Source: Brevinematales bacterium (GTDB lineage: Bacteria; Spirochaetota; Brevinematia; Brevinematales; JAOACQ01). Taken from it: DNA of 64,000 nt. Position numbers and translations under genes: made by a program. Numbering within the stretch: the stretch's first letter is position 1; every line of letters begins with the position of its first letter. A model generated the notes under the pieces. The model made no database searches and was not told where the DNA came from. It saw only the letters and a list, made by a program, of their open reading frames with translations. Shown here piece by piece: positions 7,808 to 62,575 of the stretch. Location of the stretch: positions 3,862-67,861 of the forward strand of contig JAGVOW010000064.1 of the NCBI GenBank assembly GCA_020052515.1. Reading direction: 5' to 3'.

Positions 7808-7852
7808 ACTATTCTGCATAATCGGTCAGTGAACTCCGATTTGATATAACTT

Positions 7853-12251: not shown

Positions 12252-12261
12252 GGAGAATTTT

Positions 12262-14157: not shown

Positions 14158-14159
14158 GG

Positions 14160-14212
14160 CGCCTCATCCCCCCGTCCCCCCTCTCCAAGCCTGGAGAAGG
14201 GCGGGGTGAGGC
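14160..14212. repeat. Family A element, compact self-closing copy (A3)
   Basis: Sequence CGCCTCATCCCCCCGTCCCCCCTCTCCAAGCCTGGAGAAGGGCGGGGTGAGGC. An inner stem (CTCTCCA with TGGAGA) and an outer stem (GCCTCA..CCCC with GGGGTGAGGC) can form. It starts 3 nt after the permease stop, inside the operon. Confidence 0.8.
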
Positions 14213-14257
14213 AGAGAAAGATTGTATTACATTTAGTTAAATTGGAGGAAATAAAAT

Positions 14258-15028: not shown

Positions 15029-15051
15029 GGCGAAGATAATTATCTTCGCCT
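15028..15051. terminator. Palindrome AGGCGAAGATAATTATCTTCGCCT (B/D family, D1)
   Basis: 24-bp perfect palindrome that overlaps the last base of the TAA stop. It shares the outer AGGCG/CGCCT and central TAATTA with family B. Confidence 0.6.
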
Positions 15052-15083
15052 AAATTGTTTCTATTAATATTCGGAGGAATAAA

Positions 15084-30050: not shown

Positions 30051-30125
30051 AAAAGCCTCCAGGGGCAATCTGATTTTAAGGTGTTTTATTATAAAGCAGG
30101 AGGCTTTTTCTGTCAAAAGGAACAA

Positions 30126-32171: not shown

Positions 32172-32185
32172 AAATTCCCCTCCTC

Positions 32186-34276
32186 TTATTTAATGTCCAA
32201 TAGTTCGTATATTCGCACCGGCTTGTTTTTCCCTTTTACTTTAGTTAAATCAAGCTCTCTGGCGATCACATTGTTTTTGACTAACTCATATGTAAATTCG
32301 CTTAAAACAATATTGGTATGAAAAAACTTGTTCAGGCCTTTCAAACGGGATGCCAGATTGACCGCGTCGCCGATAGCCGTATAGTTTTTTTGCTGCTCTG
32401 ATCCGACATTCCCCACAATAATATTTCCGGTATTGATGCCAATGTTTATTTTAATTGGTTTATAACCCTTTTTTGCCTGTTCGGCATTAAATTCCTGCAG
32501 CGCTTCTATCGTTTTTACGCTGGCCTGGCAGGCTTTTAAAGCATGGTCCGGAAGATCGACCGGCGCGCCCCAGAAGGCCATCACACAATCACCGATGTAT
32601 TTGTCCAGGGTTCCGCTTGTGTTGATGACAATATCCGCCATCTTTGAAAAATAACTGTTTAGATAGCTGATCAGTTCCTTTGCGTCGACATTATCTTTGA
32701 TGCTTTCCAGGCCCTTTGTCGCCGAAAAGAAGACCGTTACTTCTTTATCTTCACCGCCTAATTGAATGCGTTCCGGGTTTTGAATCAAGATATCGACTAA
32801 TTTTGGATTGAGGTAGCTGGAAAAGGTAGAATGGATAAATTTCTTCTCTTTTTGTTCTGTCAACAAGACATATATTTGCACGGCTACCAGTATGAGAACA
32901 CCGGAAAGTAAAGGCAGAAAGGTAACAATCTGGATGTTAAATAGAAACAAAGAGATTCCCAGCGCTAAAGGAATAATGAAAAACAGCGCCGTTGCCACAA
33001 TCGTCGAACGGGTTCCACGGGACACCATCCAGCCGATCAGCATAGAAATCAAAAATAAATAAAGGATATCAATCCACTCTGGTACTTCCGTAATGAAATT
33101 TCTTTTCAGCAGGGTGCCTAATACGTACGCGTTATGCTCGATCCCAAACATTTCCCCCAGTGGAGAAGCCCATTTATCTAAAGCCATTGACTTTGAGTAC
33201 ATTCCGACAAAAACAAAAGCGTTCTTCACTAATTCCGTATGAGCAATATCTTTCAATGGCACAATGCGGACATAGCCGCTCTGGGGGCTTGATTCGTAGT
33301 TTATCGAAAGTCTCCATCGATCGTCAACGGGTATAATAAAGTCAGTTTTTTGTCCGTTATAAACCGCGTTTTTAATGGTCACCTGATTTTTCTCAAAAAC
33401 CAGATTGCTAATATCGGAGTGAAACAGCTTTACAGCCATTGCCAGAACAACTGAAGGATAATAGACATTGGTTATAGTAAAATTGTTGTTATTGGTGAGA
33501 AAATAGCTGGCTCTCACAACCATCGGTTTCTTCAAGACCACACCCTGTCCATGGTCAATATTTGCTGATCCAAGAAAGCCCAGAGATTTAGAAATATCGG
33601 CCATAACAGGGGCTACGCGCGGAAAATTCATAGTTTTTTTCAGCTTTTGATTTAAATTCAATTCAAAGCGCTTCATTGCTTGTACTCTTTGTGAATCGTA
33701 ATTCAAAGACTCATTTTCATAGAGAGTTTTTCGGATCTTGCTGTCTTCTGTAATATTTATCTTTGTGCTGAAGACATCCAATATGATATCTTCGCCTACT
33801 AAGCTGGAGTAATTACTAAAGGCTTCAATCAATGCTTTGTCACTTTCCGGTCTCTGGCTTGGTTCTGCGAATATGATATCAAAAAAGACCAGAGAGGGCA
33901 TAGATTCTTTGGGAAGTGAGTTAAAATGATTCAGGAGATCGGCGTAGACTTTTCTGTCCAAAGGATAGCTTACTCCGAAAGAGCGGATAGAAGCATCGTC
34001 AACGGCGGCAATCACAAACTGATTATACACGTCTTTTTTGCCGTAATTTGTCAACGCGAGTGGAACGCTGGAGTTTTTTCCCTCTAAAATAGATTTTACT
34101 TTAAAGCGAAGATTGATGGAAGAAGTCTCAAATGCCTGAAACTTTTCCTTTATTTTAAAGACAGCGCCTTCATCCATATAATAATAAAAACCAGCGACAA
34201 ACAGAAATACTAAAAATGAAATAATAAAGACAACAGAGTATTTGCCAAATTTTTTCCAGAATCTGTTTGTTGCCAT
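32186..34276 (-). CDS. CHASE2-domain class III adenylate/guanylate cyclase, 'C2-like' paralog
   Basis: Same architecture as the downstream paralog. The first metal-site motif reads VFFSATKGLE (Asp replaced by Ala). KYIGDCV and DAVNLASRL are intact. An AGGAGG RBS lies 12 nt after the glgB stop. Confidence 0.9.
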   Translation of the reverse strand: MATNRFWKKFGKYSVVFIISFLVFLFVAGFYYYMDEGAVFKIKEKFQAFETSSINLRFKVKSILEGKNSSVPLALTNYGKKDVYNQFVIAAVDDASIRSFGVSYPLDRKVYADLLNHFNSLPKESMPSLVFFDIIFAEPSQRPESDKALIEAFSNYSSLVGEDIILDVFSTKINITEDSKIRKTLYENESLNYDSQRVQAMKRFELNLNQKLKKTMNFPRVAPVMADISKSLGFLGSANIDHGQGVVLKKPMVVRASYFLTNNNNFTITNVYYPSVVLAMAVKLFHSDISNLVFEKNQVTIKNAVYNGQKTDFIIPVDDRWRLSINYESSPQSGYVRIVPLKDIAHTELVKNAFVFVGMYSKSMALDKWASPLGEMFGIEHNAYVLGTLLKRNFITEVPEWIDILYLFLISMLIGWMVSRGTRSTIVATALFFIIPLALGISLFLFNIQIVTFLPLLSGVLILVAVQIYVLLTEQKEKKFIHSTFSSYLNPKLVDILIQNPERIQLGGEDKEVTVFFSATKGLESIKDNVDAKELISYLNSYFSKMADIVINTSGTLDKYIGDCVMAFWGAPVDLPDHALKACQASVKTIEALQEFNAEQAKKGYKPIKINIGINTGNIIVGNVGSEQQKNYTAIGDAVNLASRLKGLNKFFHTNIVLSEFTYELVKNNVIARELDLTKVKGKNKPVRIYELLDIK

Positions 34277-34288
34277 AGATTCCTCCTG

Positions 34289-36502
34289 CTATTTTTTTAG
34301 CGGCTTAAAGATTAAGCCGGCCAAAGGCGGCAAAGTAATATTGATAGAATAAGGTTTTCCCTGCCAATTTATCTCTTCCGCTTCCACGCCTCCGGTATTG
34401 CCGATATTTCCGCCCCCATATTCACTGGAATCTGAGTTCAATATTTCCTGATAAAAACCAAGCTGATTTACTCCCAGCCTGTAATCGCTTCTTGGAACAG
34501 GCGTAAAATTGAAGGCGGCAACAATAAAATCCCCGTTTTTAGCTTTTCTCATAAAAGAAAGGACACTGTTGTCCGAATCATAAAAATCGACCCACTCAAA
34601 ACCATAAGGCTCAAAATCCACTTCATAGAGGGCCGGTTCATTCTTGTAAATCTCATTCAGGCCTTTTACCAGTTTTGAGAGTTTGGCATGCGGTTCATAT
34701 TGGCAAAGGTGCCAGTCAAGGCTTTTATTTTCACTCCATTCATCCCATTGCCCAAAATCCTGGCCCATAAAAAGAAGCTTTTTTCCTGGATGTGCCCACA
34801 TATAAGTGTATAAAAGCCGCAAATTTGCAAATTTTTGCCAGTTGTCACCGGGCATTTTGTTAATCATGGAGCCTTTTCCGTGCACCACTTCGTCATGAGA
34901 AAAAACCAGAATAAAATTTTCGCTGAAAGCGTATATCATCGAAAACGTAATTGTTCCCTGATGGTATTTCCGGTGAATAGGCTCCTTTTGAAAGTATACC
35001 AGCGTGTCGTGCATCCAGCCCATATTCCATTTAAATTCAAAGCCCAAACCACCAACGTAAGTAGGGCGGGAAACACCCCCAAAAGCTGTGGATTCTTCAG
35101 CGATAGTCGTAATTCCAGGGTACTTTGAATAGACAATCTGATTCATCTTCTGCATAAAATCAATCGCTTCAAGATTTTCCCTACCGCCATATTGATTCGG
35201 GAGCCACTCGCCTTCTTTTCGGCTATAATCGAGATAGAGCATAGAAGCTACGGCGTCTACCCGCAGGCCATCAATATGGTACTGGCCCAGCCAGAAAAGG
35301 GCATTGGAAATCAAAAAATTACGGACTTCATTCCTTCCATAATTAAATATTTTTGTTCCCCAGTCCATATGTTCGCCCTTTCGCGGGTCATAATGTTCAT
35401 AAAGGGAAGTCCCATCAAAGTTTGCCAATCCATGCACGTCTTTTGGAAAATGTCCTGGCACCCAATCCATCAGCACTCCAATGTTATTTTGGTGCATAAC
35501 ATCCACAAAATGCATAAAATCTTCGGGAGTACCAAAACGGCTGCTTGGGGCAAAATACCCGGTAATCTGATAACCCCATGAGCCGTCAAAAGGATGCTCT
35601 GATACAGGCATTAGTTGAATGTGAGTGTAGCCCATCTGAATAACGTATTCAGAAAGCTTTGTTGCCAATTCCTGATAGGTTAAAAAACGATTGTTTTCTT
35701 CTAAAACCCGCATCCATGAGCCCAGATGAACTTCATAAATGGACATTGGCTTCGCCAGATTTTGACTTTCAGCCCGTTTTTTCATCCATTTTTTATCTTT
35801 CCATTTATATTTATTGATATTCCATACAATAGAGCCGGTTTTAGGGCGTAATTCCGCGAAATGAGCATAAGGGTCTGCTTTTTCCAGAATGGTGTTATTT
35901 TGGTCCTTAATCGCAAATTTATAAACATCTCCCTCGGAAAGGCCTGGTATAAATATTTCCCAGATACCGGAGCTTCCCAGTACCCGCATTTGATGCCTTC
36001 TACTGTCCCAGCCGTTAAAATCACCGAAGACACTGGCGGCTTTCGCGTTCGGAGCCCAGACCGCAAAATGGACTCCTTTTATTCCGTCTATTTCCGTTAA
36101 ATGCGCACCTAATTTTTCATAGATTTCCTGATGGCTGCCTTCGTTAAAAAGATGCCGGTCAAATTCAGAAATAACCGGAAGAAAAGAATAGGGGTCTTTG
36201 TAAATCTGAATAGCTCCATTGTAATATTCCGCTTTTAAACTATAATGAAAACAAGTGTTTTTTTGAGGATGGGTAAATTCAAAAAAGCCATTGTCAAAAA
36301 TACGGGGCATTTCGTATTGTTCTTTTTTCTCGGTATCTTCATCTAAAATCCACATTTTTTTAGCGGCAGGATTAAAAGCACGAATGACGCCTAATTTTTT
36401 CTGATTAGTTTGGACTTCATGAAAGCCCAAAACCTGAAATGGGTCATGGTACTCAAAATCGAATACTTTATTTAAAATGCCTACAGGAGCAGTATGATTC
36501 AT
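34289..36502 (-). CDS. glgB: 1,4-alpha-glucan branching enzyme
   Basis: 737 aa. GH13 motifs are [25 protein letters not shown] and FVFSHDEV. An N-terminal CBM48-like region is present. Confidence 0.95.
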
Positions 36503-50110: not shown

Positions 50111-51916
50111 ATGGTTGAAATAGCTCAGCTCGGAATAATTGGAAACTGCCGAAGCGCGGCACTAATTTCAAAAGAAGGGTCAATAGTCTGGGCCTGTATG
50201 CCTGACTTTGACTCACCATCAATATTTGCTAGAATATTAGACGAAGAAGCGGGAGGGGAATTTTGCTTTGTGCCGGATGAAGGAACGGCTGTTTCTCAGT
50301 CTTATGTTGACCGGACAAATATCCTTCGCACGCTTTTCGAAGGGCATTCCGGCAGTTTTGAAGTGCTGGACTTTATGCCGCTTTACCATATCGATGAACA
50401 ATCCTACTACAACGCGCCGGAAATCTACAGGCTGATTCATATCCTTCACGGCAATCCAGTGATTAAAGTCCGGTACCAGCCGAAGCTCAATTATAATCAA
50501 AACCCCACCCAATCTTTTATCTATAATGAAACCATAAAAAGCAATACTGTAAAAGGTGAATACCATTCCGTTTATCTTTATTCCAGCTTGCCTTTAGAAG
50601 ACATTATGAACGAGCGCCCGATAACATTGACTCAAAACGTCTTTTTCTTGGTTAGTTATCACCAAAAACTCATTTCAATCGATCTCGAGAGGGTAGAGCT
50701 GGAATTTGAGAGAACAAAGGTTTACTGGATGAATTGGGTAAACCGCACGGCGGTTTACCCGCTTTATCAGAAAGAAATAATTCGAAGCGCGCTGGCATTA
50801 AAGCTTCTGACTTATCAGAAAACCGGAGCGGTAATAGCCGCGGTTACCACTTCTTTACCCGAAAGCATTGGGGAAAACCGGAACTGGGATTACCGTTATT
50901 GCTGGCTGCGGGACGCTTCTATGATCATCCAGACCCTCACTAAAATTCATCACCGGAATACGGCGCGGGATTTTCTCCGCTTTCTACTGAATACCCTCAT
51001 TGACAAAGCTGAAACTCTCCAAATTCTCTACAGCGTCCGGGGAGAGAAAGAATTGACGGAAAGAAAATTGCCCCATTTAAAGGGCTATAAAAATTCTCAT
51101 CCGGTGCGTGTCGGTAATGCCGCTTATGTCCAGAAGCAGAATGATATTTACGGGGTATTGATGGACCTGATTTACCTCTGTTTTTGCCAATTTCCAGGCC
51201 ACCTGAATGAAGCGGAAGAACTCTGGACTACCGTCCGGTTTATTATGAAAACAGTTGAGGACAACTGGTATAAGCCGGATAGAAGTATCTGGGAAATCCG
51301 CAAAGAGCATAAACATTTTGTTTTCTCAAAGGTTTTGTCCTGGATGGCCGCCGATCGTGGTGTAATGATCGCCGAAATGTTCAACCGCGAAGATTATATT
51401 ACACCATGGTCAGAGCTGAGGGACAGCATTCGGAGGGACATTGAGTTAAAAGGATGGAATCCCGAAAAGCAGGCCTTCACGCAAACTTACGACAGCGCCG
51501 AGCTGGATGCTTCCGTACTTTTGATGGAGAAAGTCGGCTTTTGCAATGCCAGCGATCCCCGATACATCAGCACGGTACGAACTATTTACCAAGAATTATC
51601 TAGAAATGGTTTGATGTACCGCTATAAAAATAGAGATGATTTTGGGAAGCCACAGTCGGCTTTTATTATCTGCACATTTTGGATGATTGAGAGCCTTTAT
51701 AAAATTGGGGAGAAAGGAACCGCGGTGAAATTGTTTGATGATCTGCTTAAATCGGCAAACCATCTGGGTCTTTTTAGCGAAGATATGGATTTCGAGACCC
51801 ATGAACTGCTGGGAAACTTTCCTCAGGGGTATTCACATCTTGAATTAATCAATACGGCAATTCTCCTGAACGGGGACGGGGAAGAAAAAAGTCCATTCCG
51901 TCCTATCCAGCCCTGA
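50111..51916 (+). CDS. Glycoside hydrolase family 15 (glucoamylase/trehalase-type)
   Basis: N-terminal GIIGNCRSAALISKEGSIVWACMPDFDSPSIFARIL. The catalytic-domain motif is GENRNWDYRYCWLRDAS. About 600 aa, typical of bacterial GH15. Confidence 0.88.
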   Translation: MVEIAQLGIIGNCRSAALISKEGSIVWACMPDFDSPSIFARILDEEAGGEFCFVPDEGTAVSQSYVDRTNILRTLFEGHSGSFEVLDFMPLYHIDEQSYYNAPEIYRLIHILHGNPVIKVRYQPKLNYNQNPTQSFIYNETIKSNTVKGEYHSVYLYSSLPLEDIMNERPITLTQNVFFLVSYHQKLISIDLERVELEFERTKVYWMNWVNRTAVYPLYQKEIIRSALALKLLTYQKTGAVIAAVTTSLPESIGENRNWDYRYCWLRDASMIIQTLTKIHHRNTARDFLRFLLNTLIDKAETLQILYSVRGEKELTERKLPHLKGYKNSHPVRVGNAAYVQKQNDIYGVLMDLIYLCFCQFPGHLNEAEELWTTVRFIMKTVEDNWYKPDRSIWEIRKEHKHFVFSKVLSWMAADRGVMIAEMFNREDYITPWSELRDSIRRDIELKGWNPEKQAFTQTYDSAELDASVLLMEKVGFCNASDPRYISTVRTIYQELSRNGLMYRYKNRDDFGKPQSAFIICTFWMIESLYKIGEKGTAVKLFDDLLKSANHLGLFSEDMDFETHELLGNFPQGYSHLELINTAILLNGDGEEKSPFRPIQP

Positions 51917-51925
51917 CAAATTGCT

Positions 51926-54157
51926 TTAGCTTCTCTTAAAATATTCGAATATTTTCTGAAATAAACCTTTTCTGTAGCCGGACATTTTTTCTATAATTTC
52001 TAGAAACTCATCGGTTGATTCCAGATAATAATGGGCAAATGACTTCTGCCTGCCTATTTTGATAGTATAGGCTTCCTCTGGAAGCGCTTGAAACAGGAGT
52101 TCGTCGGTGTGATCATCCCCGGCGGCCAGTATGAATCCGTAATCCTGTCCGGACAGGAGCTGCCTGGCCGCTTCGCCTTTATTGACTCCGGAGCATTTTA
52201 TTTCTACCACCTTATTTCCCATCAAAACTTCAATATCGTTGCGGGCTGTAAATTGTACCATGTCATCGACAAATTCCTTAACCCGCAGGCCGGCAAGGGA
52301 ATAATCCGAATTCCGAAAATGCCAGACAACACTGTATTCCTTTTCTTCAATGGTCGAGTAGGGCAGTCTGTCTTTGTAGTTTTCTAATATCTGAATAATT
52401 CTGGGTTTCCAATCGTTTTTGAGTTCCCGGCTGAGTTTCCATTCTTTTTTTGGTTTCTTGATCCAGACTCCATGTTCCGCTACTAAAGTAATCGGGTACC
52501 TGTCGTACCAATTTTCCAGTTCTTTTTTATTTCTCCCGCTGATAATAACAATGTCGACTCCTGACTGTTCTGACAGTAGCCGAATAATCTCAAGCAATTT
52601 CTTCCCTGGAACCGCGCCCGATGGTTTATCAGCAAAAGGCACAAGCGTACCGTCATAATCCAGAAATAAAATTTTTCTATCGGTCTTATTGTATTGGTCA
52701 AAAAGTTTTTCCAATTCGTTCTCTTCCAAACGCAAAGTTCCATACTTCTTTTGTTCTTCCTTCGTTTTTGCCAGTTCCTCGAAAAAATCAGAAGCCCATT
52801 TTTTAACATCATGCTTTTTCAACCGCTCCTGCATAGCCGTAACGCGCCTGGCCTGTTCTTCAAGCGGCATTTCCAGAGCGATTTTGATCGCTTCCGTTAT
52901 TTCTTCCCGGTTGTTTGGATTAATAATCAAAGCTTCTCCAAGTTCCATGGCGGCTCCAGCCATCTCGCTTAGAATTAGAACTCCTTTTTTTTCTTTCTGC
53001 GCCGCGACATACTCTTTTGCTACCAGATTCATCCCATCCCTCAGGGGGGTTACCAGTCCGGCGTCGCTGATGTTATAAAGGGCCACCAGCTGCTCAAAAG
53101 GAATGGCCCTGTATTGATAAATAACAGGTGTCCAGTGAATATTCCCATAATCCCCGTTGATTTTTCCGATAAGTTGATTAATAATGTCCTTTTCCTTTTG
53201 ATAGTGTTCCACTCCAATTCTCGAAGGCACCACAATCATAATCAAAGAAACTTTCTGATGCCAGGCCGGATTGTTTTTTAAAAACAGCTCATAACCTTCC
53301 AGCCGCTTTAATATTCCCTTGGTATAGTCCTGGCGGTCAACGGAAAAAATGATTTTCAGATTTTGAAGCCCTTTTTTTAACAAAGCCTTTTCCCGGTTTA
53401 CTGAAGCAAGATTGGCGGCTTTGTAATACTTATCAAAGTCAATTCCCATTGGAAAAGTGTCGGCTTTTGTCAATTTGTGCTCTAAAGCGAGCATTCCCAT
53501 GTTATGATTAAACCCTAATATACGGAGGACACAACGTAGAAAATACTGCGTATAATCGTAGGTGTGAAAACCAATCAGATCGGCGTCTAAAAGTCCCTGC
53601 AGAATCTCCTTCCCCCATTTTCTTGGAAGCAGTCGGAACATTTCATGGGAAGGAAAGGGTATGTGCAAAAAAAAGCCGATAGAAACATCCGGCTGTTTTT
53701 CCCGGATCAATTGAGGGACTAGCATGAGATGATAATCCTGTATCCAGAGAACATCATCCGGCTGGATTATCTTTAAAACAGCTTCCGCGAAAATGGCATT
53801 GACCTCTTTGTAATTTTCCCACATTTTCTCATCATAGACCGTCAAATAAGGAAAATAATGAAATAGCGGCCAGATTGTTTTATTGCAGAAGCCATTGTAA
53901 AACAGGTCCATGGTTTTTTCTTCGACAAAAACAGGCAGAGAATGATAATTTTTACACAATTCTTCTTCCACCGCTTGCCGGTCGTTGTAGTTTGACCCTC
54001 CCGGCCAGCCAATCCAGAGATAATTTTTGTCTTTTAAAGTGGCCAGATAAGCGCTTATACCGGTAACCAGGCCTCCGCTGCTGGATTTGACAATTACCGA
54101 GTTGTTTTCTTCTGTAACAGTTGCCTGAAGGCGGTTGGATAATATCAGCAAACGCAA
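51926..54157 (-). CDS. otsA: Fused trehalose-6-phosphate synthase / trehalose-6-phosphate phosphatase (GT20 + HAD)
   Basis: GT20 motifs SGGLVTG, IWIQDYHLMLVP, GFFLHIPFPS and LRDGMNLVAKEY. The C-terminal HAD motif is LFLDYDGTLVPF...GDDHTDE. The start is reassigned to TTG 54157 with an AAGGAG RBS that overlaps the nhaD stop. The track ATG 54256 would overlap nhaD by 89 nt. Confidence 0.9.
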   Translation of the reverse strand: MRLLILSNRLQATVTEENNSVIVKSSSGGLVTGISAYLATLKDKNYLWIGWPGGSNYNDRQAVEEELCKNYHSLPVFVEEKTMDLFYNGFCNKTIWPLFHYFPYLTVYDEKMWENYKEVNAIFAEAVLKIIQPDDVLWIQDYHLMLVPQLIREKQPDVSIGFFLHIPFPSHEMFRLLPRKWGKEILQGLLDADLIGFHTYDYTQYFLRCVLRILGFNHNMGMLALEHKLTKADTFPMGIDFDKYYKAANLASVNREKALLKKGLQNLKIIFSVDRQDYTKGILKRLEGYELFLKNNPAWHQKVSLIMIVVPSRIGVEHYQKEKDIINQLIGKINGDYGNIHWTPVIYQYRAIPFEQLVALYNISDAGLVTPLRDGMNLVAKEYVAAQKEKKGVLILSEMAGAAMELGEALIINPNNREEITEAIKIALEMPLEEQARRVTAMQERLKKHDVKKWASDFFEELAKTKEEQKKYGTLRLEENELEKLFDQYNKTDRKILFLDYDGTLVPFADKPSGAVPGKKLLEIIRLLSEQSGVDIVIISGRNKKELENWYDRYPITLVAEHGVWIKKPKKEWKLSRELKNDWKPRIIQILENYKDRLPYSTIEEKEYSVVWHFRNSDYSLAGLRVKEFVDDMVQFTARNDIEVLMGNKVVEIKCSGVNKGEAARQLLSGQDYGFILAAGDDHTDELLFQALPEEAYTIKIGRQKSFAHYYLESTDEFLEIIEKMSGYRKGLFQKIFEYFKRS

Positions 54158-54167
54158 GATTTTCTCC

Positions 54168-55457
54168 TTACTTAAGCAACATTTGTAATAAATAAGTCCC
54201 CGCACCGGCAAAATAACCAATAAGGGCCAGCCAGCCGATCTTTTTAAAATACTCAAAAAAACCTATTTTTTCCAGGCCCATCGCCGCTACGCCCGCCGCC
54301 GAACCAATGATCAAAATACTGCCGCCCGTTCCAGCGCTGTAGGCCAGAAGTTCCCAGAAAGAATGGTCTGTCGGCAATACGCTGAGAGGGTACATTCCTA
54401 TTGCCGCGGCGACTAATGGAACGTTATCCACTATGGCGGACAAGATTCCAATAGCTATAGCCGTAACATTTATGTTTCCGATCAAGCGGTTCATAGAATC
54501 GGCTAAACTGCCCAATATTCCAGCAGTCTGAAGGGAAGAAACCGCCAGCAATATGCCGAGAAAAAACAATATGGTTGTCATATCCATTTTTCTGAGCGCT
54601 GATAATACGGAAAGCTTGTATCTATCCTCCGCGGCTTTCTTTTTGTGCATCAATTCGGTTATGACCCACAAAACACCTAGCGCTAAAAGCATTCCCATAA
54701 AAGGCGGTAAATGAGTAACCGATTTAAAAACAGGTATGGAGATCAATAAAAACACCCCGGAAAATAAGATCGCTTTGTTCTCAAACATTAAAGGAGCCAA
54801 TTCTTTTTTTTCCTTTTCCTTTGATGGTTTGTCTTCGTTTTTTCCAATCATAAATGTAAAAAAAACAAGAGGCACTAGCAAATTCATGAGACTCGGCAAA
54901 ATTACGGATCGAATAATATTCCAGCTCGTAATTCGATGCGCGGTCCAGAGCATCGTGGTTGTCACATCCCCAATCGGCGACCAGGCTCCGCCGGCATTAG
55001 CGGCAATCACAACGACTCCAATAAACAAGAAACGTTCTTTAGATTCTGTTACCAGCTTTCTGACCAGCATTACCATAATGATGGCAGTCGTGAGATTATC
55101 TAAAATTGAGGATAAGAAAAAAGTAATAAATGACACAATCCATAAAAGTTTTTGCTGAGACTGTCTTGCATTTTTGCCCCCGATCAGGTTCGTGATGACG
55201 GCAAATCCGTTATGGGCTTCTATCAGTTCCACTATTGTCATCGCCCCCAGGAGAAAAAACAAAATAGCGGCTATATCTCCGGTATGCGCCATTAATTGTT
55301 CTAAGATTCCGCCTTTCTCAGCCGTGCCTGAAATCAAAATCGACCAGCACAAAACACCGGTAATTATAGCCGACGCGGCTTTGTCCAATTTCAAAAACCG
55401 GTCAAAAATAATACAGCAATATCCAATGACAAAAACTAGAATCATAAAAGCGCTCAT
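54168..55457 (-). CDS. nhaD: NhaD/ArsB-superfamily Na+/H+ antiporter
   Basis: 429 aa with about 11-12 TM helices. Sequence patterns (FFLLGAMTIVELI, LDNLTTAI, ANAGGAWSPIGDVTTTMLW, DNVPLVAA) are typical of NhaD-type transporters. Confidence 0.78.
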   Translation of the reverse strand: MSAFMILVFVIGYCCIIFDRFLKLDKAASAIITGVLCWSILISGTAEKGGILEQLMAHTGDIAAILFFLLGAMTIVELIEAHNGFAVITNLIGGKNARQSQQKLLWIVSFITFFLSSILDNLTTAIIMVMLVRKLVTESKERFLFIGVVVIAANAGGAWSPIGDVTTTMLWTAHRITSWNIIRSVILPSLMNLLVPLVFFTFMIGKNEDKPSKEKEKKELAPLMFENKAILFSGVFLLISIPVFKSVTHLPPFMGMLLALGVLWVITELMHKKKAAEDRYKLSVLSALRKMDMTTILFFLGILLAVSSLQTAGILGSLADSMNRLIGNINVTAIAIGILSAIVDNVPLVAAAIGMYPLSVLPTDHSFWELLAYSAGTGGSILIIGSAAGVAAMGLEKIGFFEYFKKIGWLALIGYFAGAGTYLLQMLLK

Positions 55458-55487
55458 ATTTCCCCCTAAAATTACTTATAACTTTTT

Positions 55488-56447
55488 TTATCTTGTAGCG
55501 ATTAAAAAAGTTATATATCCGATGTACATCAAGACCATAATTACGCCCTGCCATCTTTCAATTGTATGTTTTCTTCCTATAAACATCGCTATAAATAAAA
55601 TAACTGTCGCAAAAATCGTCATGAATACATCTGTATTTGAGCTGGAGTTGAACGGTAAAGGACGGATGAGCGCGCTGATACCAAGAACCCAGAATATATT
55701 GAAAACGTTTGAACCAACTACATTGCCGATAGCGATATCCGATTGTTTTTTATACGCGGCGACAGCCGAAGTCGCTAATTCCGGAAGAGAAGTACCGATT
55801 GCTACTACTGTTAAAGCGATTAAAGATTGGCTTATTTTAAAGCTTTCCGCTATTTTTATAGCACCATCAACTATCCAGTTTCCCCCGATAATTAAACCTA
55901 CGATACCAAAAATAACAAAACATATCGATTGAATCATTCCAAAAGATTTTGTTTTTTCTTCTTCAATATTTTCTTCGGAAGATTTTGATATACCAAAAGT
56001 GTAATAAAGGAAAACAATCAAAAACGACAGAAAAACTAAACCATCAATTCTGCCGATTCCGTTAAACAACGAGCCTTCAAATATTTTATCATTAGCCATA
56101 ATGCCCAGAAGCGCTATGGCTAAAAGGCTGAAAGGAATTTCCTTCATAACGGTGTTTTTTTTAGCGGTAATCGGGTAAATGATAGAGGCTACACCCAATA
56201 TTAATAGTATATTAGCGATATTGCTCCCCAGTATATTTCCAATCGCGATTTCCGTGTCGCCTTTCGCGCTGGCAAAAATATTAATAAAAAATTCCGGAGC
56301 GGATGTTCCAAAAGATACTATCGTTAAACCGATGACAATATTTGAAATCTTCAGCTTTTTCGCGATGGATACAGATCCGTCCACTAAGAAATCAGCGCCT
56401 TTTATGAGAACAATAAAGCCGGCGATAAACAGAATATAAGTCAGCAT
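55488..56447 (-). CDS. Ca2+/cation (Na+) antiporter, CaCA family (YrbG-like)
   Basis: Two alpha-repeats: GTSAPEFFINIFAS...GNILGSNIANILLILG and GTSLPELATSAVAA...GNVVGSNVFNIFWVLG. Confidence 0.9.
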   Translation of the reverse strand: MLTYILFIAGFIVLIKGADFLVDGSVSIAKKLKISNIVIGLTIVSFGTSAPEFFINIFASAKGDTEIAIGNILGSNIANILLILGVASIIYPITAKKNTVMKEIPFSLLAIALLGIMANDKIFEGSLFNGIGRIDGLVFLSFLIVFLYYTFGISKSSEENIEEEKTKSFGMIQSICFVIFGIVGLIIGGNWIVDGAIKIAESFKISQSLIALTVVAIGTSLPELATSAVAAYKKQSDIAIGNVVGSNVFNIFWVLGISALIRPLPFNSSSNTDVFMTIFATVILFIAMFIGRKHTIERWQGVIMVLMYIGYITFLIATR

Positions 56448-56466
56448 ATAAATAACCCCTCAAAAG

Positions 56467-57606
56467 CTAATAAAAATCCACCCTGTAATTTACGCCAACT
56501 AAAAGAAGGGTGTTGCCGCCTTTAAAATCGGCGACTCCGTTTATGGTTTGGAAAGACTCTGAAAAGGATGAGTAATAAAAATCCAATTTTATGCCCCAAT
56601 TTCCCTGAAAATAATAATCCAGTCCTAGATTAACAATCGGAATAGCGATCGATCTATGAGGCTCCGCGATATCATTACCTATAAGCATTTCGCTATTTAG
56701 AAAATTCATAGCGAAAGAGGCTTTAAGAGAAAACTCCGGGCTGAAGTCATATTTTACAAAGGCCATAGGCGCTAAAAACGCGGGCGTAATTTGATAGGCA
56801 ACGTAATTGTTTCCGGGATAAGACCTGATCGTAACCAGCGAAAATGTAGCTGCAAGCCCCGCGCCCGCTGTAATATTCCAGAGCCTGTATCCGGCAAAAA
56901 TAGCGCTCAAATTGTTTTTCCAGTTGTCCAGCGACAACTCATTATTCACGAGCAAGGGCATAAAACTGCTGAAACCAAAGTAAACGCTTCCCAGCCTTAT
57001 TTCCAGCCCCATGAAAGGAAGCCAGGTAAAGTGATCGTTAAAACTGCTGTTTATTCCCAGCGTAGTGACAAAAGAACGGTTTAGTTTGATGTCATCAGAA
57101 ACCAATTCCACTCTTTTTCTATATTTTACAAGAGTTTCTTCATCCATCGGTTTGACTGCCTTTGTCACATCCTGCCTCAAGTTTTCAATAATAACATCCA
57201 GAGTGTCAAATATGTCCTGGCCCGCGTTTCCGGAGTAGCTATTCTCAAACTTTAAGAGCCTCTGGAGGACATCGTAAACGCTTACATAAATGTAGATTTT
57301 ATCGCCGATCACAGCATAACTTCCATTGACAACAATATCGTAACCATTGGTGTAAGCGTCATTAAAAACACCGCGCATAGACGTTTTTTCCGCGTTTTTT
57401 ATATTTACATCCAGATAATCTACTTTTGACAGAAATGTTTTAATGGAATTCTGGATCACCAGTGTTAAATTGGCCTCTCTGCCTTTTTCTGTTTTATTCA
57501 CAAACGGATATACCGCCATTTTCCAATGATTGGTGGGTTGTGTGTTTCCATAACTAATTTGAACAAATAAAAATAATACAAATAGTGAAAGCATTATCTT
57601 TTTCAT
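56467..57606 (-). CDS. Envelope protein with an N-terminal LpoB/CsgG-like module and a C-terminal beta-barrel (379 aa)
   Basis: Signal peptide. N-domain pattern MAVYPFVNKTEKGREANLTLVIQNSIKTFLSK...YDIVVNGSYAVIGDKIYIYVSVYD. The C-terminus ends ...VGVNYRVDFY (OMP beta-signal). Confidence 0.6.
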   Translation of the reverse strand: MKKIMLSLFVLFLFVQISYGNTQPTNHWKMAVYPFVNKTEKGREANLTLVIQNSIKTFLSKVDYLDVNIKNAEKTSMRGVFNDAYTNGYDIVVNGSYAVIGDKIYIYVSVYDVLQRLLKFENSYSGNAGQDIFDTLDVIIENLRQDVTKAVKPMDEETLVKYRKRVELVSDDIKLNRSFVTTLGINSSFNDHFTWLPFMGLEIRLGSVYFGFSSFMPLLVNNELSLDNWKNNLSAIFAGYRLWNITAGAGLAATFSLVTIRSYPGNNYVAYQITPAFLAPMAFVKYDFSPEFSLKASFAMNFLNSEMLIGNDIAEPHRSIAIPIVNLGLDYYFQGNWGIKLDFYYSSFSESFQTINGVADFKGGNTLLLVGVNYRVDFY

Positions 57607-58727
57607 TATTTTCCTCCCAGAGTAAACTTATAAGAAATGCCGCCTGAGAGAGAACTGTTGACCACCAATGGAGGCATCCCGCCTGAATCAGGGATCAATA
57701 TCAGCCAGATGTTATATTGAAAACCAGCCCATAAGACAGGAGTTATTCCTATATTAAACCGGAGAAATCCGCCTGTCAGATTAAACTTTCCGCTATACTC
57801 ATAGGGCCAGTTTTGATTTTCCGCGACTGAAGGCGGCAGAGAATAATCAATGCGGTTTATTTCTGAAAGGGGAGTGAAATAACCCCCTAAGGCAAGCTGG
57901 TATCGGTCTGTTACATTTACCATCATAACCGGAGAAAAATAAAAACAGTGAAAACTCAAAATATTGTCTTCAGTATCCGCTGTCCGGTAACCGATACGGG
58001 CAGTCAGAGTCAAAAGCCCATTAAAAGCATTGATTTCCGGGCCGCCGTAAACAGCATATTCAGCGATTCCCAGAAAAGAAGCGCTTGCGCCAAAATTAAA
58101 ACCAAGCCACTTGTAGCGGAAAGCGGAGTCAAGATAAAGGCCTATTTCATTGGAATACATTTCTGCTATGGGAATCGAGTTGCCTGAGTAGAAAAAGCCC
58201 AGCTCTGTTATCACCGCCGGATTGACATACTCAAATCTTCCAACTCCTATTTTCTCCACTTCTTCTTTTACCAGAATATTTTTTGGTATCCTCGGAAAGT
58301 GATCTTCCAGCCACAACGGCAGGGACTTTCTTAATTTTGTGATACCTTCGTTTAAATCTGAAAAATCCAGCCGGGTGGAGAAGCTTTTACCGTCACGGTT
58401 GACCGCGTTTATATTCAATTCAAATTTACCCTGCGTTTGTTTCAATTCCCCTATGAGACAAACATTAATCTTATTGAGCAATAAGAATTTTGTTATGTCG
58501 CTGGTATCAAGATAATTAGTTGCCTGAAAATCCAGAACAAGCTGGGCATTGCTTATGCGGCTGATAATGCTTCTGGATTCCTCTTCAAACAAATATGCCT
58601 GCGCGGCGGAAGCGGAAACAGCGCTGAAATCTTTCACAAAAATTTTTGGAGGAACGGTTTCTTCCGCCGAAAACCCTATAGAGAAAGATAACAGCAAAAC
58701 CCCTGCCGCGAGATGAAATTTAGACAT
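57606..58727 (-). CDS. Paralogous-architecture envelope protein, N-domain plus beta-rich C-terminal domain (373 aa)
   Basis: Signal peptide. N-domain pattern IFVKDFSAVSASAAQAYLFEEESRSIISRI...NVCLIGELKQTQGKFELNINAVN. Its stop overlaps the next gene's start as TAATG. Confidence 0.6.
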   Translation of the reverse strand: MSKFHLAAGVLLLSFSIGFSAEETVPPKIFVKDFSAVSASAAQAYLFEEESRSIISRISNAQLVLDFQATNYLDTSDITKFLLLNKINVCLIGELKQTQGKFELNINAVNRDGKSFSTRLDFSDLNEGITKLRKSLPLWLEDHFPRIPKNILVKEEVEKIGVGRFEYVNPAVITELGFFYSGNSIPIAEMYSNEIGLYLDSAFRYKWLGFNFGASASFLGIAEYAVYGGPEINAFNGLLTLTARIGYRTADTEDNILSFHCFYFSPVMMVNVTDRYQLALGGYFTPLSEINRIDYSLPPSVAENQNWPYEYSGKFNLTGGFLRFNIGITPVLWAGFQYNIWLILIPDSGGMPPLVVNSSLSGGISYKFTLGGK

Positions 58728-58883
58728 AAATCCTCCAGTTGGATCAACTAGAAAGTGGAAATTTAACCTGATTTTATTCTACAACGAAACAATAGAAATT
58801 GCATGTTTAATGAATAATTTATTATCACTAAAAAGATAATTCATTCGTCAATTCACCGATTTTGCTCAAAGATAACTCAATGC

Positions 58884-58912
58884 TTGACAAAAAGCAAAAA
58901 TAAAGATAATCT
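58884..58912 (+). promoter_or_regulatory. Candidate promoter of the zinc operon, TTGACA-17 nt-TAATCT
   Basis: A perfect -35 TTGACA at 58884-58889 and a weak -10 TAATCT at 58907-58912. The palindrome starts at the end of the -10 element. Confidence 0.4.
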
Positions 58913-58934
58913 ATATGCAAATGATTTGCATATA
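58912..58934. promoter_or_regulatory. Candidate Zur (Fur-family) operator, 23-bp palindrome TATATGCAAATGATTTGCATATA
   Basis: Two perfect 11-bp arms around a central G at 58923. It sits between the -10 element and the AGGAGG RBS of the first gene of an operon that ends with a Fur-family regulator. The AT-rich 7-1-7-like architecture resembles known Fur/Zur boxes. Confidence 0.55.
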
Positions 58935-58944
58935 GGAGGGATAT

Positions 58945-59523
58945 ATGAAATTGCAAAAATTTTTACTTGCCGCTGTTTTGATAATGTCATGCAGTATGGC
59001 TATGGCGGAAGAAGAAAAGAAAGCCACCGGGCTTTCAGCGGGGATTGAAACAGGATACGGTGATGTGCTTACCTACGGTGAAGGGTTTGAATTCTGGGTT
59101 AAACCGAATATCGGCTGGGATATTTTCGACACCGGCTTCTCATTAGGCCTGGGCCTGGTTCTGCCAGTTTACCCGGCTGGAAACAGCATCTCTTTAGAAC
59201 TTTCGGAAAGTTATGGACTGGATATTGGAGACTCCGGTTTTGAAGCGGAATTCGGGAACTGGAATGGACTGTCTCTGGGAGAACAGCCTGGATTTGACGG
59301 TTTTATTTTCGCTGGTATCGGTTATTCAGGTTTTTCCCTGGCTCTACAGGCGCATTATTTAAGCGGTTCGGCCTTCGGATTTGGCGGCCTGACATTTGTT
59401 CCCGGTTATTCCTTTGAATTGGGAAATTTTGAGATAGGTATCTGCGCTGAGATCGGCATGCAGACCGGTGAACAGATCAGCTGGTCTATTGTACCGATAT
59501 TGGGCTGTTCCTATAGTTTCTAA
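58945..59523 (+). CDS. Small acidic Gly-rich outer-membrane beta-barrel protein (192 aa), first gene of the zinc operon
   Basis: Signal peptide ...SMAMA-EEE. Short amphipathic strands are rich in G, F, E and D. The C-terminus is ...GCSYSF (terminal Phe beta-signal). Confidence 0.6.
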   Translation: MKLQKFLLAAVLIMSCSMAMAEEEKKATGLSAGIETGYGDVLTYGEGFEFWVKPNIGWDIFDTGFSLGLGLVLPVYPAGNSISLELSESYGLDIGDSGFEAEFGNWNGLSLGEQPGFDGFIFAGIGYSGFSLALQAHYLSGSAFGFGGLTFVPGYSFELGNFEIGICAEIGMQTGEQISWSIVPILGCSYSF

Positions 59524-59548
59524 ACAATCTTAAACAGGAGTTTAAAAA

Positions 59549-60484
59549 ATGAAACAACTTATATTTCTTAAAGTAATAATGGGTTTATCCATTATTTTAA
59601 CAGCTTGCGCAGGGAAAAACAATGCTGGAAAAGGCGAGGTATTAACATCATTTTACCCGATACAGATATTTACTATGAATATCACGGAGGGCATTCCTGA
59701 ATTGGCTCCGAAGTTAATGATCCCATGCACGCTTGGCTGTCCGCATGAATATTCCATGACACCTGGCGATATGGAAAAAATCAGGAGCGCGAAAGTTTTG
59801 ATTATCAACGGCCTGATGGAATCTTCTTTTATATCGCCTGAAAAAATCAAGGCCTTAAATCCATCCGTCACCTTGATAGATTCGGGAAAAGAAGCGGTAT
59901 TAATTCCGCTGGAAGAGGAAGAAGGCCACCACCATGATGGAAACACGCACGAAGAGGAGCACCATCATGGAAAATACAATCCGCATCTCTGGGTTTCACC
60001 TTTTGTCGCGGCGGTGCAGGTGCGCGTGATCGGCAGAGAATTGTCGGCGCTTTATCCAAAACACTCTGAAAAACTTTTAAAAAACGCGGAAAACTACGCA
60101 ATGAAATTGGAAGCCATGGGTGAAACCATGAAAAAAGAAATCGCGAAATTTCCGAATAAAAAAATTATTGCCTTTCATGAAGCATTTGATTATTTTGCCC
60201 GCGACCTGGGGCTGGATGTGGTTGGGGTTCTGGAAATCGAACCTGGGGTAAATCCCGGCCCGAAGCACTTGAAGGAAATGGCTAACCTGGCTAAAAAGTA
60301 CAATTTAAAAGCTGTATTCGCGGAAGCTCAATACCCGGCGGATATTGCTGAAATGGTCGCAAAAGAAGCCGGAATAAGGCTGTTAATTTTAGATCCCGCG
60401 GCCAGCGCGGCTAAAATAGAACCGGGTATGTATGAGGAAATAATGGTAAAAAATATGTCAGCTCTGAAAGAGGCTTTACAGTAA
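59549..60484 (+). CDS. znuA: Zinc ABC transporter substrate-binding lipoprotein (ZnuA/TroA family)
   Basis: Lipobox LTA-C. An acidic His-rich loop, EEEEGHHHDGNTHEEEHHHGKYNPHLW, is characteristic of ZnuA. It has the cluster-9 SBP layout. Confidence 0.85.
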   Translation: MKQLIFLKVIMGLSIILTACAGKNNAGKGEVLTSFYPIQIFTMNITEGIPELAPKLMIPCTLGCPHEYSMTPGDMEKIRSAKVLIINGLMESSFISPEKIKALNPSVTLIDSGKEAVLIPLEEEEGHHHDGNTHEEEHHHGKYNPHLWVSPFVAAVQVRVIGRELSALYPKHSEKLLKNAENYAMKLEAMGETMKKEIAKFPNKKIIAFHEAFDYFARDLGLDVVGVLEIEPGVNPGPKHLKEMANLAKKYNLKAVFAEAQYPADIAEMVAKEAGIRLLILDPAASAAKIEPGMYEEIMVKNMSALKEALQ

Positions 60485-61203
60485 TGACAAACGACGCTAT
60501 TCAGGTAAAAGAACTATCGGTAAAGATCAATGAAACCGTTATTCTGGATAACCTGAGCTTCACTATACCAAAAGCCCAGGTTACATCTATCATCGGGCCG
60601 AACGGAGCGGGTAAAACTACTCTGCTGTCCGCCATATTAGGAATGATTGAGTATTCCGGGAGCGTTGAATTTTGCGATGGAAATAATGTAAAAATCGGTT
60701 ATGTGCCCCAGCGGCTGAGTCTCGCGAAAGACTCAGCCGTAACGGCGGCCGATTTATTTACGATGACCCATCAGAAAAAACCGGTCTATCTTGGCACAAC
60801 CAGAAGATGCGGCGTCATCGCCGAAGAATATTTGAATCTGGTCCAGATGGCTCATTATAAGAACAGAAAGCTCTCTGTGCTGTCCGGCGGCGAATTACAG
60901 CGTGTCCTGATAGGGCTTGCCTTATCCAGAAAACCATCCATTCTTATCATGGATGAAGCTTCCGCCGGTATTGATTTCCAGGGAAGTTCCGCACTGGACG
61001 ATTTAACCAGGAAGCTGAACCGTGAGAATTCATTGACCGTCATTATGGTATCACATGATTTAAGCGTTGTAAACCGCTCTTCTGACCACATTGTATGCAT
61101 TAACAAAACACTGGTCTGTCAGGGACCGCCTGAAAAAACGCTGACGCCGAAAAGTATAGCGAATGCGTTCGGAAATCCGGCGCTTCATTCTCATGCCCAT
61201 TAA
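60484..61203 (+). CDS. znuC: Zinc ABC transporter ATP-binding protein
   Basis: Walker A GPNGAGKTT, signature LSGGELQRVLIGLAL, Walker B ILIMDEASAGID. Confidence 0.85.
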   Translation: MTNDAIQVKELSVKINETVILDNLSFTIPKAQVTSIIGPNGAGKTTLLSAILGMIEYSGSVEFCDGNNVKIGYVPQRLSLAKDSAVTAADLFTMTHQKKPVYLGTTRRCGVIAEEYLNLVQMAHYKNRKLSVLSGGELQRVLIGLALSRKPSILIMDEASAGIDFQGSSALDDLTRKLNRENSLTVIMVSHDLSVVNRSSDHIVCINKTLVCQGPPEKTLTPKSIANAFGNPALHSHAH

Positions 61204-61211
61204 GAGGTTAT

Positions 61212-62075
61212 ATGTTAAATGAGATATTTTTAGTAATTTATCATTTTCTGGATATTGTTTTGCCCTTTGCCTGGGCAGAACCGGTCTTTATGAAAAACGC
61301 GCTGATAGCGCTGGTGTTGATCGCTCCGGCCGCGGCGCTGGTCGGCATTCACCTGACGGCTTTACATATGGCTTTTTTCGGCGACGCGATTTCCCATTCC
61401 GCTTTTACCGGGATTGCTCTGGGTTTTTTATTTTCGGTTAATCCTTCCCTATCTATGGCAATATTCGCGGTGGCGATATCCATTTTGATCTATTTTGTCG
61501 AAAAAAAATCCAATATCGCGATGGACAATATTATCAGCGTGATGATGAGCCTCGGTGTGGCTGCCGGCCTCTGTATTGTCAGTTTCCGCAAGAGTTTTAT
61601 GCGTGATTTCCAGTCTTATTTATTCGGTGATATTTTAACCGTCAGCCAGGGTGAGATCATTGTTATGTTTCTAGTCCTGGTATTCATAGTCATCTGGAGC
61701 TATATTAACTACAACCGCCTGGCCTTGATGTCGCTGTCTCCGCTTCTCATAATCGATAAAGCGAAATCAAGGGGTTTGAGCAAGCTTTTATTTTCATTAT
61801 TATGCGCGGTGCTGGTAGCAGTCAGCATAAAAGTTACGGGAATGCTCCTGATCACTTCGCTTCTGGTTATTCCCGCGGTGACAGCCAGGCTGATCGCGAA
61901 AAGCGAAGGACGGATATTCCGGATAGCGTATATGATAATCGCCGGTACGTCACTATTCGCGCTCATCGTGTCTTATTACCTCGACATGGCGACCGGAGGA
62001 GTTATCATTGTTTTTCTTTCAGTTTTGTTTTTTATCGCTTATTTATTGCGGGCTGTCTGGAAAATATCATTATAA
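61212..62075 (+). CDS. znuB: Zinc/manganese ABC transporter permease (ABC-3 family)
   Basis: About 8 TM helices. Motifs FFGDAISHSAFTGIALG and TSLLVIPAVTARL are typical of ZnuB/TroCD-type permeases. Confidence 0.85.
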   Translation: MLNEIFLVIYHFLDIVLPFAWAEPVFMKNALIALVLIAPAAALVGIHLTALHMAFFGDAISHSAFTGIALGFLFSVNPSLSMAIFAVAISILIYFVEKKSNIAMDNIISVMMSLGVAAGLCIVSFRKSFMRDFQSYLFGDILTVSQGEIIVMFLVLVFIVIWSYINYNRLALMSLSPLLIIDKAKSRGLSKLLFSLLCAVLVAVSIKVTGMLLITSLLVIPAVTARLIAKSEGRIFRIAYMIIAGTSLFALIVSYYLDMATGGVIIVFLSVLFFIAYLLRAVWKISL

Positions 62076-62152
62076 TTTTTATTCATAAAGTGGTTTTTAC
62101 TGTTTTACTGAATTATAATTATAGGATAAATATTTCGGCAGGATTTTAATTT

Positions 62153-62575
62153 ATGAAAGATAAGTGTCAGGCGCATAATCTGTTAAGTGAAAATCAGCTT
62201 AAAATAACTAAACAAAGAGAAGATGTTTTATCCAGGATAATAGAATTGGATAAGCCCTTCAATGTCAATGAGCTGCGTTCAGTCCTGGGCGGCAATTTTG
62301 ATATAGTCACGATTTACCGGATATTAGAAGCTTTCAGCCGGAAGGGAATTGTCCGCGAAGTATCCAGTCTAAACGGCGTGCGATATTTTGAATTGTCCTG
62401 CGTACACCACCCCATACATCCGCACTTTATCTGCGAGCATTGCCATAGTATTTACTGCCTGGGCGCGATTGACTATAAAGACAGCCTTAAACTGGGTAAG
62501 TATGCGGATACACACAGCATATCCGGCATATCGATTAATTTCACGGGAATTTGCGGCCAATGCGGGGTGAAGTAA
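62153..62575 (+). CDS. zur: Fur-family metalloregulator, probable Zur
   Basis: 140 aa. The wHTH region is TKQREDVLSRII...IYRILEAFSRKGIVREV. Metal sites are HHPIHPHFICEHCHSIYC and CGQCG. It lies immediately downstream of znuACB. Confidence 0.75.
   Translation: MKDKCQAHNLLSENQLKITKQREDVLSRIIELDKPFNVNELRSVLGGNFDIVTIYRILEAFSRKGIVREVSSLNGVRYFELSCVHHPIHPHFICEHCHSIYCLGAIDYKDSLKLGKYADTHSISGISINFTGICGQCGVK

Follow-up and report, generated by a model that had tools for sequence, protein, structure and literature searches.

In proteobacteria, proteins of the PelC, TolB-N, LpoB and CsgG fold organise trans-envelope machines. PelC, the outer-membrane lipoprotein of the Pel exopolysaccharide exporter, is located on the periplasmic face of the outer membrane; it contains no barrel itself and instead encircles PelB, a separate barrel, as a dodecameric ring. 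Another arrangement is found in Myxococcus (GltA/GltB) and Borrelia (BB0405/BB0406), where adjacent genes for diverged paralogous barrel proteins are co-transcribed and their products are thought to act together. Here we examine a stretch of 64,000 nucleotides (nt) from a Brevinematales bacterium (contig JAGVOW010000064.1, positions 3,862 to 67,861 of the forward strand), hereafter the window, in which a minus-strand run of five genes starts with two exported proteins, P1 and P2, and continues with a CaCA antiporter, an NhaD antiporter and the trehalose-synthesis protein OtsAB. A preliminary description of the run had read it as a salt or osmotic stress module with P1 and P2 as its outer-membrane component, possibly a channel or sensor. 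As judged from gene layout and comparison with other loci, the five genes most likely constitute one transcription unit built of two evolutionarily independent parts.

Results

The run consists of the following genes, all on the minus strand and read from the open reading frame (ORF) list:

57606-58727, minus strand: P1, 373 amino acids (aa), head of the five-gene unit
56467-57606, minus strand: P2, 379 aa, second gene
55488-56447, minus strand: CaCA antiporter gene, 319 aa
54168-55457, minus strand: NhaD gene, 429 aa
51926-54157, minus strand: OtsAB gene, 743 aa, TTG start

Read directly on the minus strand, P1 and P2 overlap by 1 nt (ATAATG), and the remaining gaps are 19 nt (P2/CaCA), 30 nt (CaCA/NhaD) and 10 nt (NhaD/OtsAB), with the nhaD TAA forming the first triplet of a TAAGGAG that lies six bases before the otsAB TTG. 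Shine-Dalgarno-like sequences (GGAGG, GAGGGG, AGGGGGA or AAGGAG) precede all five starts. In the mechanical ORF list, OtsAB runs on to 54256; with NF011071, the alignment begins at residue 1 of the protein that starts at 54157, and for this reason we take 54157 to be the right start, as the preliminary description had done. That description also holds for the coordinates and spacing of the five genes, the overlap at the first junction, the nhaD stop within the otsAB ribosome-binding site and the Shine-Dalgarno sequence of each gene. No terminator-like hairpin was found in any of the four gaps, and promoter-like hexamers occur at chance frequency (20 found, 18.8 expected in shuffled sequence), so that no promoter can be placed among them. 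With a single strand, short gaps (-1, 19, 30 and 10 nt), ribosome-binding sites throughout and no internal terminator, the five genes have the operon-like arrangement that had been proposed for them; established operon-prediction work treats spacings of at most 30 nt between genes on one strand as a strong predictor of bacterial co-transcription. Scans of the window for Rfam families and tRNAs gave no match.

The two leading proteins are organised alike:

P1: signal peptide 1-21 (FSA/EE); alpha/beta domain about 25-145; helical linker; beta-rich C-terminal half about 171-369
P2: signal peptide 1-20 (SYG/NT); alpha/beta domain 28-150; helix 156-170; 10-strand barrel 177-378

Their signal peptides, read from the translations as MSKFHLAAGVLLLSFSIGFSA/EE in P1 and MKKIMLSLFVLFLFVQISYG/NT in P2, are of the SPase-I type and form an N-terminal helix in both structure models. 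No Cys occurs in or after the signal peptide of either protein, P2 being Cys-free throughout, and a lipoprotein reading was rejected for want of a lipobox Cys. The AlphaFold2 (AF2) model of P2, built on an alignment of 59 sequences, has a mean predicted local distance difference test score (pLDDT) of 86.9, with ten C-terminal strands mostly above 80. Foldseek against the PDB relates its N-domain to TolB and PelC and its C-terminal half to OpcA and Pla (10-strand), OmpW, OmpA and FadL; by sequence, the P2-family profile matches the C-terminal strands of Escherichia coli FadL (E 3e-5) and Opa60 (E 7e-3). One hydrophobic face is clear in 8 of the 10 strands, and loops of 7, 16, 21 and 18 residues alternate with turns of 2, 2, 4 and 2 on the side of the termini, a topology of the classical outer-membrane type, which places the N-domain in the periplasm. 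The P2 C-terminus, YRVDFY, carries an aromatic beta-signal and contains the VDFY ending pointed out in the preliminary description. In the AF2 model of P1, based on a mixed P1/P2 alignment, residues 1-150 reach pLDDT 87-98 and adopt the same N-domain fold as P2; here Foldseek retrieves TolB, LpoB, GNA1162 and PelC for the N-domain and NspA, OmpA and Ail for the C-terminal half. Both models attain a Foldseek probability of 1.0 to TolB, PelC, LpoB and GNA1162. Against the Pfam models of TolB_N/LpoB/CsgG/PelC type neither protein gave a match at E 0.1 or better, and neither reached any Pfam or NCBIfam threshold. In outline, each protein is modelled with a signal peptide, an alpha/beta domain resembling TolB-N/PelC/LpoB and, at the C-terminus, an outer-membrane beta-barrel, which is only suggested in P1. 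The signal peptide, the LpoB/CsgG/TolB-N-like domain of about 150 aa and the beta-rich C-terminal half that the preliminary description had recognised are borne out by the AF2 models, Foldseek and the profile matches; the structure prediction that it had proposed as a check returned an outer-membrane-type barrel, and its envelope reading was not refuted.

To place the pair in a wider context, contigs with P2 relatives, including metagenome contigs found with an alignment of the clade of 400-aa proteins (A6), had their ORFs searched with hidden Markov models of both families. Identical contigs, as well as the duplicate L019/L026, were counted once, and flanks were searched up to 10 kb per side, several contigs (L006, L007, L021 and L022) ending about 1 kb or less from the pair. 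Of 17 other distinct loci, 15 carry a P1-family gene directly upstream of the P2-family gene, both on one strand and with stop and start codons that overlap or nearly abut; of the other two, L027 lies at a contig edge and L029 is a weak, divergent match. The pair loci span 29 to 58% G+C, and, of the pairs found, the one closest to that of the window is 51% identical in P2 and 38-39% in P1. Its neighbours vary:

L001: OEP and RND pump upstream of the pair
L003: GroES downstream of the pair
L006: convergent gene beside the pair
L008: CoA-enzyme activase beside the pair
L019/L026, L024, L030: Hsp70 diverging upstream, with a DnaJ-domain gene in L030
L020, L023, L024, L025, L030: XerC/D-type tyrosine recombinase downstream of the pair
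Various loci: SerA, MetW, peptidyl-prolyl isomerase (PPIase), methyl-accepting chemotaxis protein (MCP) and SLT transglycosylase as neighbours

With CaCA, NhaD, OtsAB and the trehalase-like GH15 protein encoded beside otsAB as tblastn queries against all pair loci, no match was obtained within the available flanks, and the five-gene order, whose conservation had been put forward as a check, was found in no other pair locus within those flanks. Conversely, the NhaD relatives retrieved in a GTDB scan (Bacteroidales, 38-46% identity) have unrelated neighbours, with no CaCA, OtsAB or pair nearby. Since the pair is conserved among varying neighbours that include none of the three genes, a tie to ion transport is not a property of the family. 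On these comparisons, P1-P2 is best described as an autonomous, translationally coupled cassette, and its placement before a salt/osmotic gene set seems to be lineage-specific. The proposal that the pair is the outer-membrane component of a salt/osmotic module is not sustained by loci in which the neighbours are unrelated, nor is a channel role indicated, the nearest solved 10-strand barrels being an adhesin (OpcA) and a protease (Pla) with no open pores.

Sequence searches portray a small, divergent family. A phmmer search with P2 among 1.84 billion representatives yielded 72 relatives, mostly 400-440 aa in length, with residues 1-190 as the common region. In a word-indexed homologue search, P2 gave 4 matches and P1 only itself, one more being added when the P1 alignment was the query; with the close-subfamily alignment (A2), no P2-type genes were found in GTDB genome contigs or metagenome contigs. 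Scanned singly, the P2 relatives show weak N-terminal matches to FlgO, TolB_N, LpoB and CsgG (best E 5.8e-6, CsgG), each model being matched by only 1-3 of 59 family members, and a few matches of the C-terminal part to OMP_b-brl, OmpA_membrane, DUF2715 and KdgM. The two leading proteins had been called paralogous, which is not visible in a pairwise comparison (BLASTP, no significant similarity, best E 0.27) but emerges when the profiles of the two families are compared: in hhalign these are collinear over 347 columns (probability 97.6%, E 4e-12). By this measure, P1 and P2 are very old, very distant paralogues. Their patterns of conservation are also distinct. The P2 family has about 30 columns with at least 75% identity, mostly in the N-domain (S54, D90, G95, Y97, D112, G126 and D131-I-F-D-T-x-D137), from which a signature of Y97, D112, G126 and I-F-D-T-x-D (132-137) can be drawn; the P1 family has 6 such columns, all in the linker or barrel and none in the N-domain. 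The family is new in that it has no Pfam or NCBIfam model, and in the literature we found no description of it or of the combination of the pair with NhaD/OtsAB.

Two annotated families were tried and rejected, the scores being far below the cutoffs. TP0183_fam (NF049867; cutoff 140 bits) gave 17.8 bits with P1 and 20.6 with P2, over residues 1-115 or 1-136 (E 2e-4 and 1e-3), and was matched by 9 of 59 family members, and DUF2715 (PF10895) gave 14.6 bits against a cutoff of 22 (P2 residues 293-344, E 0.03). The "DNA metabolism protein" label of TP0183 traces to yeast two-hybrid interactions (PMC2386257). This label is hard to reconcile with a secreted protein, and our alignments suggest that TP0183 may really be a secreted envelope protein, because the N-terminal part of its profile (110-135 positions) shows a weak alignment to the signal peptide and TolB-N-like domain of P1, P2 and nine relatives. 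Weak matches of window proteins to Treponema-specific families (TP0183_fam, DUF2715), as well as to a Leptospira lipoprotein family, hint at a spirochaete, and the LolCE-like permeases and barrel proteins of the window are consistent with a diderm envelope.

Some flanking genes of the pair deserve mention in their own right. In the 400-aa clade, the P2-type gene has a XerC/D-type recombinase gene behind it in the same orientation, the stop codon of the one mostly overlapping the start codon of the other (L020, 6718-7596; L023, 5850-6764; L024, 11339-12256; L025, 11259-12167; L030, 11275-12165), and pair plus recombinase looks like a conserved three-gene unit. The Hsp70 that diverges from the pair in several members of this clade is short (583-601 aa), and in L030 it is followed by a DnaJ-domain gene (210 aa), an arrangement other than the canonical dnaK-dnaJ-grpE. 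L001 holds two pairs of OEP (TolC-like) and RND pump genes (4386-8809 and 11760-16330), with no recognisable membrane-fusion (adaptor) gene beside either; the P1/P2-type pair comes directly after the first.

The remaining genes of the unit were identified as the preliminary description had proposed, here by Pfam and NCBIfam scores. The product of 55488-56447 matches PF01699 (Na_Ca_ex) with two repeats (E 6e-66) and TIGR00367 with 253.8 bits (cutoff 179.65), and is assigned by homology to the YrbG-type CaCA family of Ca2+/Na+ (cation) antiporters, the substrate being a prediction. That of 54168-55457 scores 176 bits with NF038006 (NhaD_1, cutoff 80) and also matches Pfam CitMHS, the stricter TIGR00775 remaining below its cutoff (384 versus 577.1 bits); it is classified as an NhaD-type Na+/H+ antiporter. 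The product of 51926-54157 reaches 971 bits with NF011071 (cutoff 634) over residues 1-726 and joins in one chain a Glyco_transf_20 (GT20) domain, residues 2-463, and a Trehalose_PPase (HAD-IIB) domain, residues 498-698, the domain content of a bifunctional trehalose-6-phosphate synthase/phosphatase, an OtsA-OtsB fusion. These are ordinary textbook salt/osmotic functions, with nothing new in them. Na+ extrusion with trehalose synthesis makes physiological sense as a response to ionic or osmotic stress, and the three genes plausibly form a conventional set of this kind (Na+ extrusion, Ca2+/Na+ exchange, trehalose synthesis). A further gene, outside the operon, faces them:

50111-51916, plus strand: GH15 trehalase-like (TreH-like) gene, Glyco_hydro_15 and TREH_N

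It scores 393 bits with NF041084 (TreH1), below the cutoff of 820, and is convergent on otsAB; the two stop codons are 9 nt apart and no terminator hairpin lies there. Genes for trehalose synthesis and degradation therefore face each other, with transcripts that may collide. The GH15 protein is a candidate trehalose-turnover partner of OtsAB. Elsewhere in the window, four large minus-strand genes form a run (28389-36502), the last of which encodes GlgB (34289-36502); GlgB, OtsAB and GH15 together suggest a window rich in alpha-glucan and trehalose metabolism.

Upstream of P1, the unit borders on a plus-strand zinc-uptake operon:

58728-58944: divergent intergenic region, 217 nt, between P1 and the zinc-uptake operon

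The promoter of the five-gene unit must lie in this region. An imperfect, AT-rich inverted repeat (58809-58845; 15-7-15, 80% complementary), 82-118 nt upstream of the P1 start, overlaps a minus-strand promoter-like pair, TTGACG...GATAAT, with a 19-nt spacer, and could be an operator or the promoter of the unit. A perfect 12-1-12 palindrome, CTATATGCAAAT-G-ATTTGCATATAG (58911-58935), occurs once in the window, 10 nt upstream of the divergent operon (58945-62575), which encodes a 192-aa protein, znuA, znuC, znuB and a Fur-family regulator (62153-62575); it is probably a Zur operator, a putative assignment. The 192-aa protein (58945-59523, plus strand), first in the zinc-uptake operon, has a signal peptide, a Gly-/aromatic-rich alternating sequence and CSYSF at its C-terminus; no Pfam or NCBIfam model matched it, and it may be a small outer-membrane barrel for zinc.

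Discussion

What the pair does, and why it heads a set of salt/osmotic genes, can be approached from its distribution. We consider it probable that the unit is a composite of two independent parts, a pair with a general envelope role and, behind it, a salt/osmotic set, joined by a lineage-specific fusion. In a diderm envelope, P1 and P2 would leave the cytoplasm through Sec and reach the outer membrane as substrates of the barrel assembly machinery (BAM), with their TolB-N/PelC/LpoB/CsgG-like domains held against the periplasmic face of that membrane, a placement suggested by the loop topology and by the periplasmic location of all structural relatives. As neither signal peptide has a lipobox Cys, the barrel of each protein would itself stand in for the lipid anchor used by PelC, LpoB and CsgG. 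Since the two genes nearly always lie side by side in a constant order, their stop and start codons overlapping or abutting, the two products probably form a stoichiometric heteromer. Within it, P2 would be the bearer of an invariant, strongly acidic functional surface (Y97, D112, G126, IFDTxD) and P1 the fast-evolving scaffold subunit. Because the neighbours elsewhere vary and are often housekeeping genes, the role of the pair would be that of a general docking or scaffold complex on the periplasmic face of the envelope, and not one in ion transport or conduction. The lineage-specific joining of the two parts would lead to their co-expression without showing a shared mechanism.

Several points weigh against this composite model. 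We infer the heteromer from gene adjacency and co-transcription from gene spacing. The barrel of P1 is poorly modelled (pLDDT 38-70 in the C-terminal half, the strands being amphipathic though), probably a result of the mixed P1/P2 alignment, and P1 in the subclade of the window ends in SYKFTLGGK, without a terminal aromatic residue, the C-terminus of the wider-clade P1 family being G(I/V)xYEF. Several pair loci are short contigs, where missing transporter genes are weak evidence, and the five-gene order could still be conserved in the immediate genus, the nearest pair compared being only 51% (P2) and 38-39% (P1) identical. Finally, some functional link would still be in keeping with a position at the head of an operon that also encodes ion transporters.

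Such a link would be closest if P1-P2 were a dedicated outer-membrane cation channel or sensor, passing or sensing Na+/Ca2+ for CaCA and NhaD and co-induced with trehalose synthesis. The shared strand, the gaps of 30 nt or less and the leading position of P1/P2 agree with it, as do the predicted outer-membrane barrels and, in the periplasmic domain of the P2 family, five nearly invariant aspartates (D90, D112, D131, D134, D137) that could bind cations. We nonetheless regard it as unlikely: the 15 other distinct loci with the pair hold no CaCA, NhaD or OtsAB in their available flanks, the closest relatives of the pair adjoin GroES or RND efflux genes, the Bacteroidales NhaD relatives likewise stand apart from CaCA/OtsAB and the pair, and the nearest barrel matches, OpcA, Pla, OmpW and OmpA, are not ion channels. 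Moreover, small cations pass outer membranes through general porins, and no dedicated gate is needed. In a variant that we hold to be quite improbable, P1 and P2 represent an undescribed family of obligate heteromeric outer-membrane proteins, the acidic signature of P2 (D90, D112, D131, IFDTxD) binds divalent cations, and the complex was recruited in this genome as a periplasmic cation sensor or gate working with the co-transcribed antiporters and trehalose synthesis; if true, the locus would encode an envelope-spanning salt-response module.

The composite model also presupposes a single transcript. Alternatively, the run could be at least two abutting transcription units, the pair having its promoter in the 217-nt region and CaCA-NhaD-OtsAB, or OtsAB alone, being transcribed from internal promoters with no co-regulation. 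The autonomy of the pair in all other loci would fit, and translational coupling, which the 1-nt overlap provides, is absent across gaps of 19 and 30 nt; minus-strand promoter-like hexamers do lie inside coding sequence (e.g. 55561-55534 and 55432-55405), yet such sites are no commoner than in shuffled sequence, the gaps have no terminator-like hairpin and, on one strand, do not exceed 30 nt, which leaves this arrangement a low probability. Very improbable, in our view, is an autotransporter-like topology, in which the N-terminal alpha/beta domain is a surface passenger and helix 156-170 is threaded through the C-terminal barrel. The order of globular N-domain, helix and C-terminal barrel resembles that of type V secretion, and the translocator domains of EspP and NalP appear low in the Foldseek list; however, 10 strands are modelled instead of the 12 of type Va, no autotransporter Pfam domain was matched, and TolB-N, PelC, LpoB and GNA1162, the structural relatives of the N-domain, are all periplasmic. 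The lumen of a 10-strand barrel is, besides, too narrow for a helix.

The interest of the locus rests on the uncharacterised pair and not on the operon, itself ordinary. What is new here is a two-gene cassette of diverged paralogues in fixed order, each predicted to combine a small outer-membrane barrel with an N-terminal PelC/TolB-N-like domain. Should the pair act as proteins of this fold do in proteobacteria, a barrel-anchored heteromeric version could fill the place of a missing structural or docking element in the envelope of organisms that have it, and the conserved pair offers a clean target for co-folding and pull-down work.

Among known systems, PelC (PDB 5t0z, 5t11, 9h80) is the best compact match to both N-domains, with TM-scores of 0.52-0.61 relative to PelC and a root mean square deviation of about 4 A over 130-145 columns. 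Unlike PelC, P1 and P2 lack a lipobox Cys and each have a barrel, in P1 a putative one, joined to the N-domain; they show no match at the Pfam level and have no pel genes nearby. The alpha/beta fold is also common to the TolB N-terminal domain, LpoB, CsgG and FlgO, with TolB and LpoB among the top Foldseek matches, and the JGI label for P2 is "TolB-like protein"; yet P1 and P2 lack the beta-propeller of TolB and the lipid anchor of LpoB and CsgG, and no Tol-Pal, curli or flagellar H-ring genes are adjacent to them. The C-terminal halves recall the small barrels OpcA and Pla (10 strands), OmpW, OmpA, NspA and Ail (8 strands) and the C-terminal strands of FadL in their amphipathic strands, their alternation of long loops and short turns and, as in P2, their terminal aromatic beta-signal. 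None of these, on the other hand, has an N-terminal TolB-N-like periplasmic domain or is encoded as an obligate paralogue pair, and OmpA has the reverse order, barrel first and then a different periplasmic domain. In its genetic logic the pair is reminiscent of GltA/GltB and BB0405/BB0406, a likeness that serves as a lead only; those proteins are not known to have a TolB-N-like domain or to be homologous to P1/P2. With scores below the sequence thresholds, no lipid anchor and no partner genes nearby, the pair is a member of none of the PelC, LpoB and CsgG families; by analogy, it resembles a barrel-anchored version of the class that they represent.

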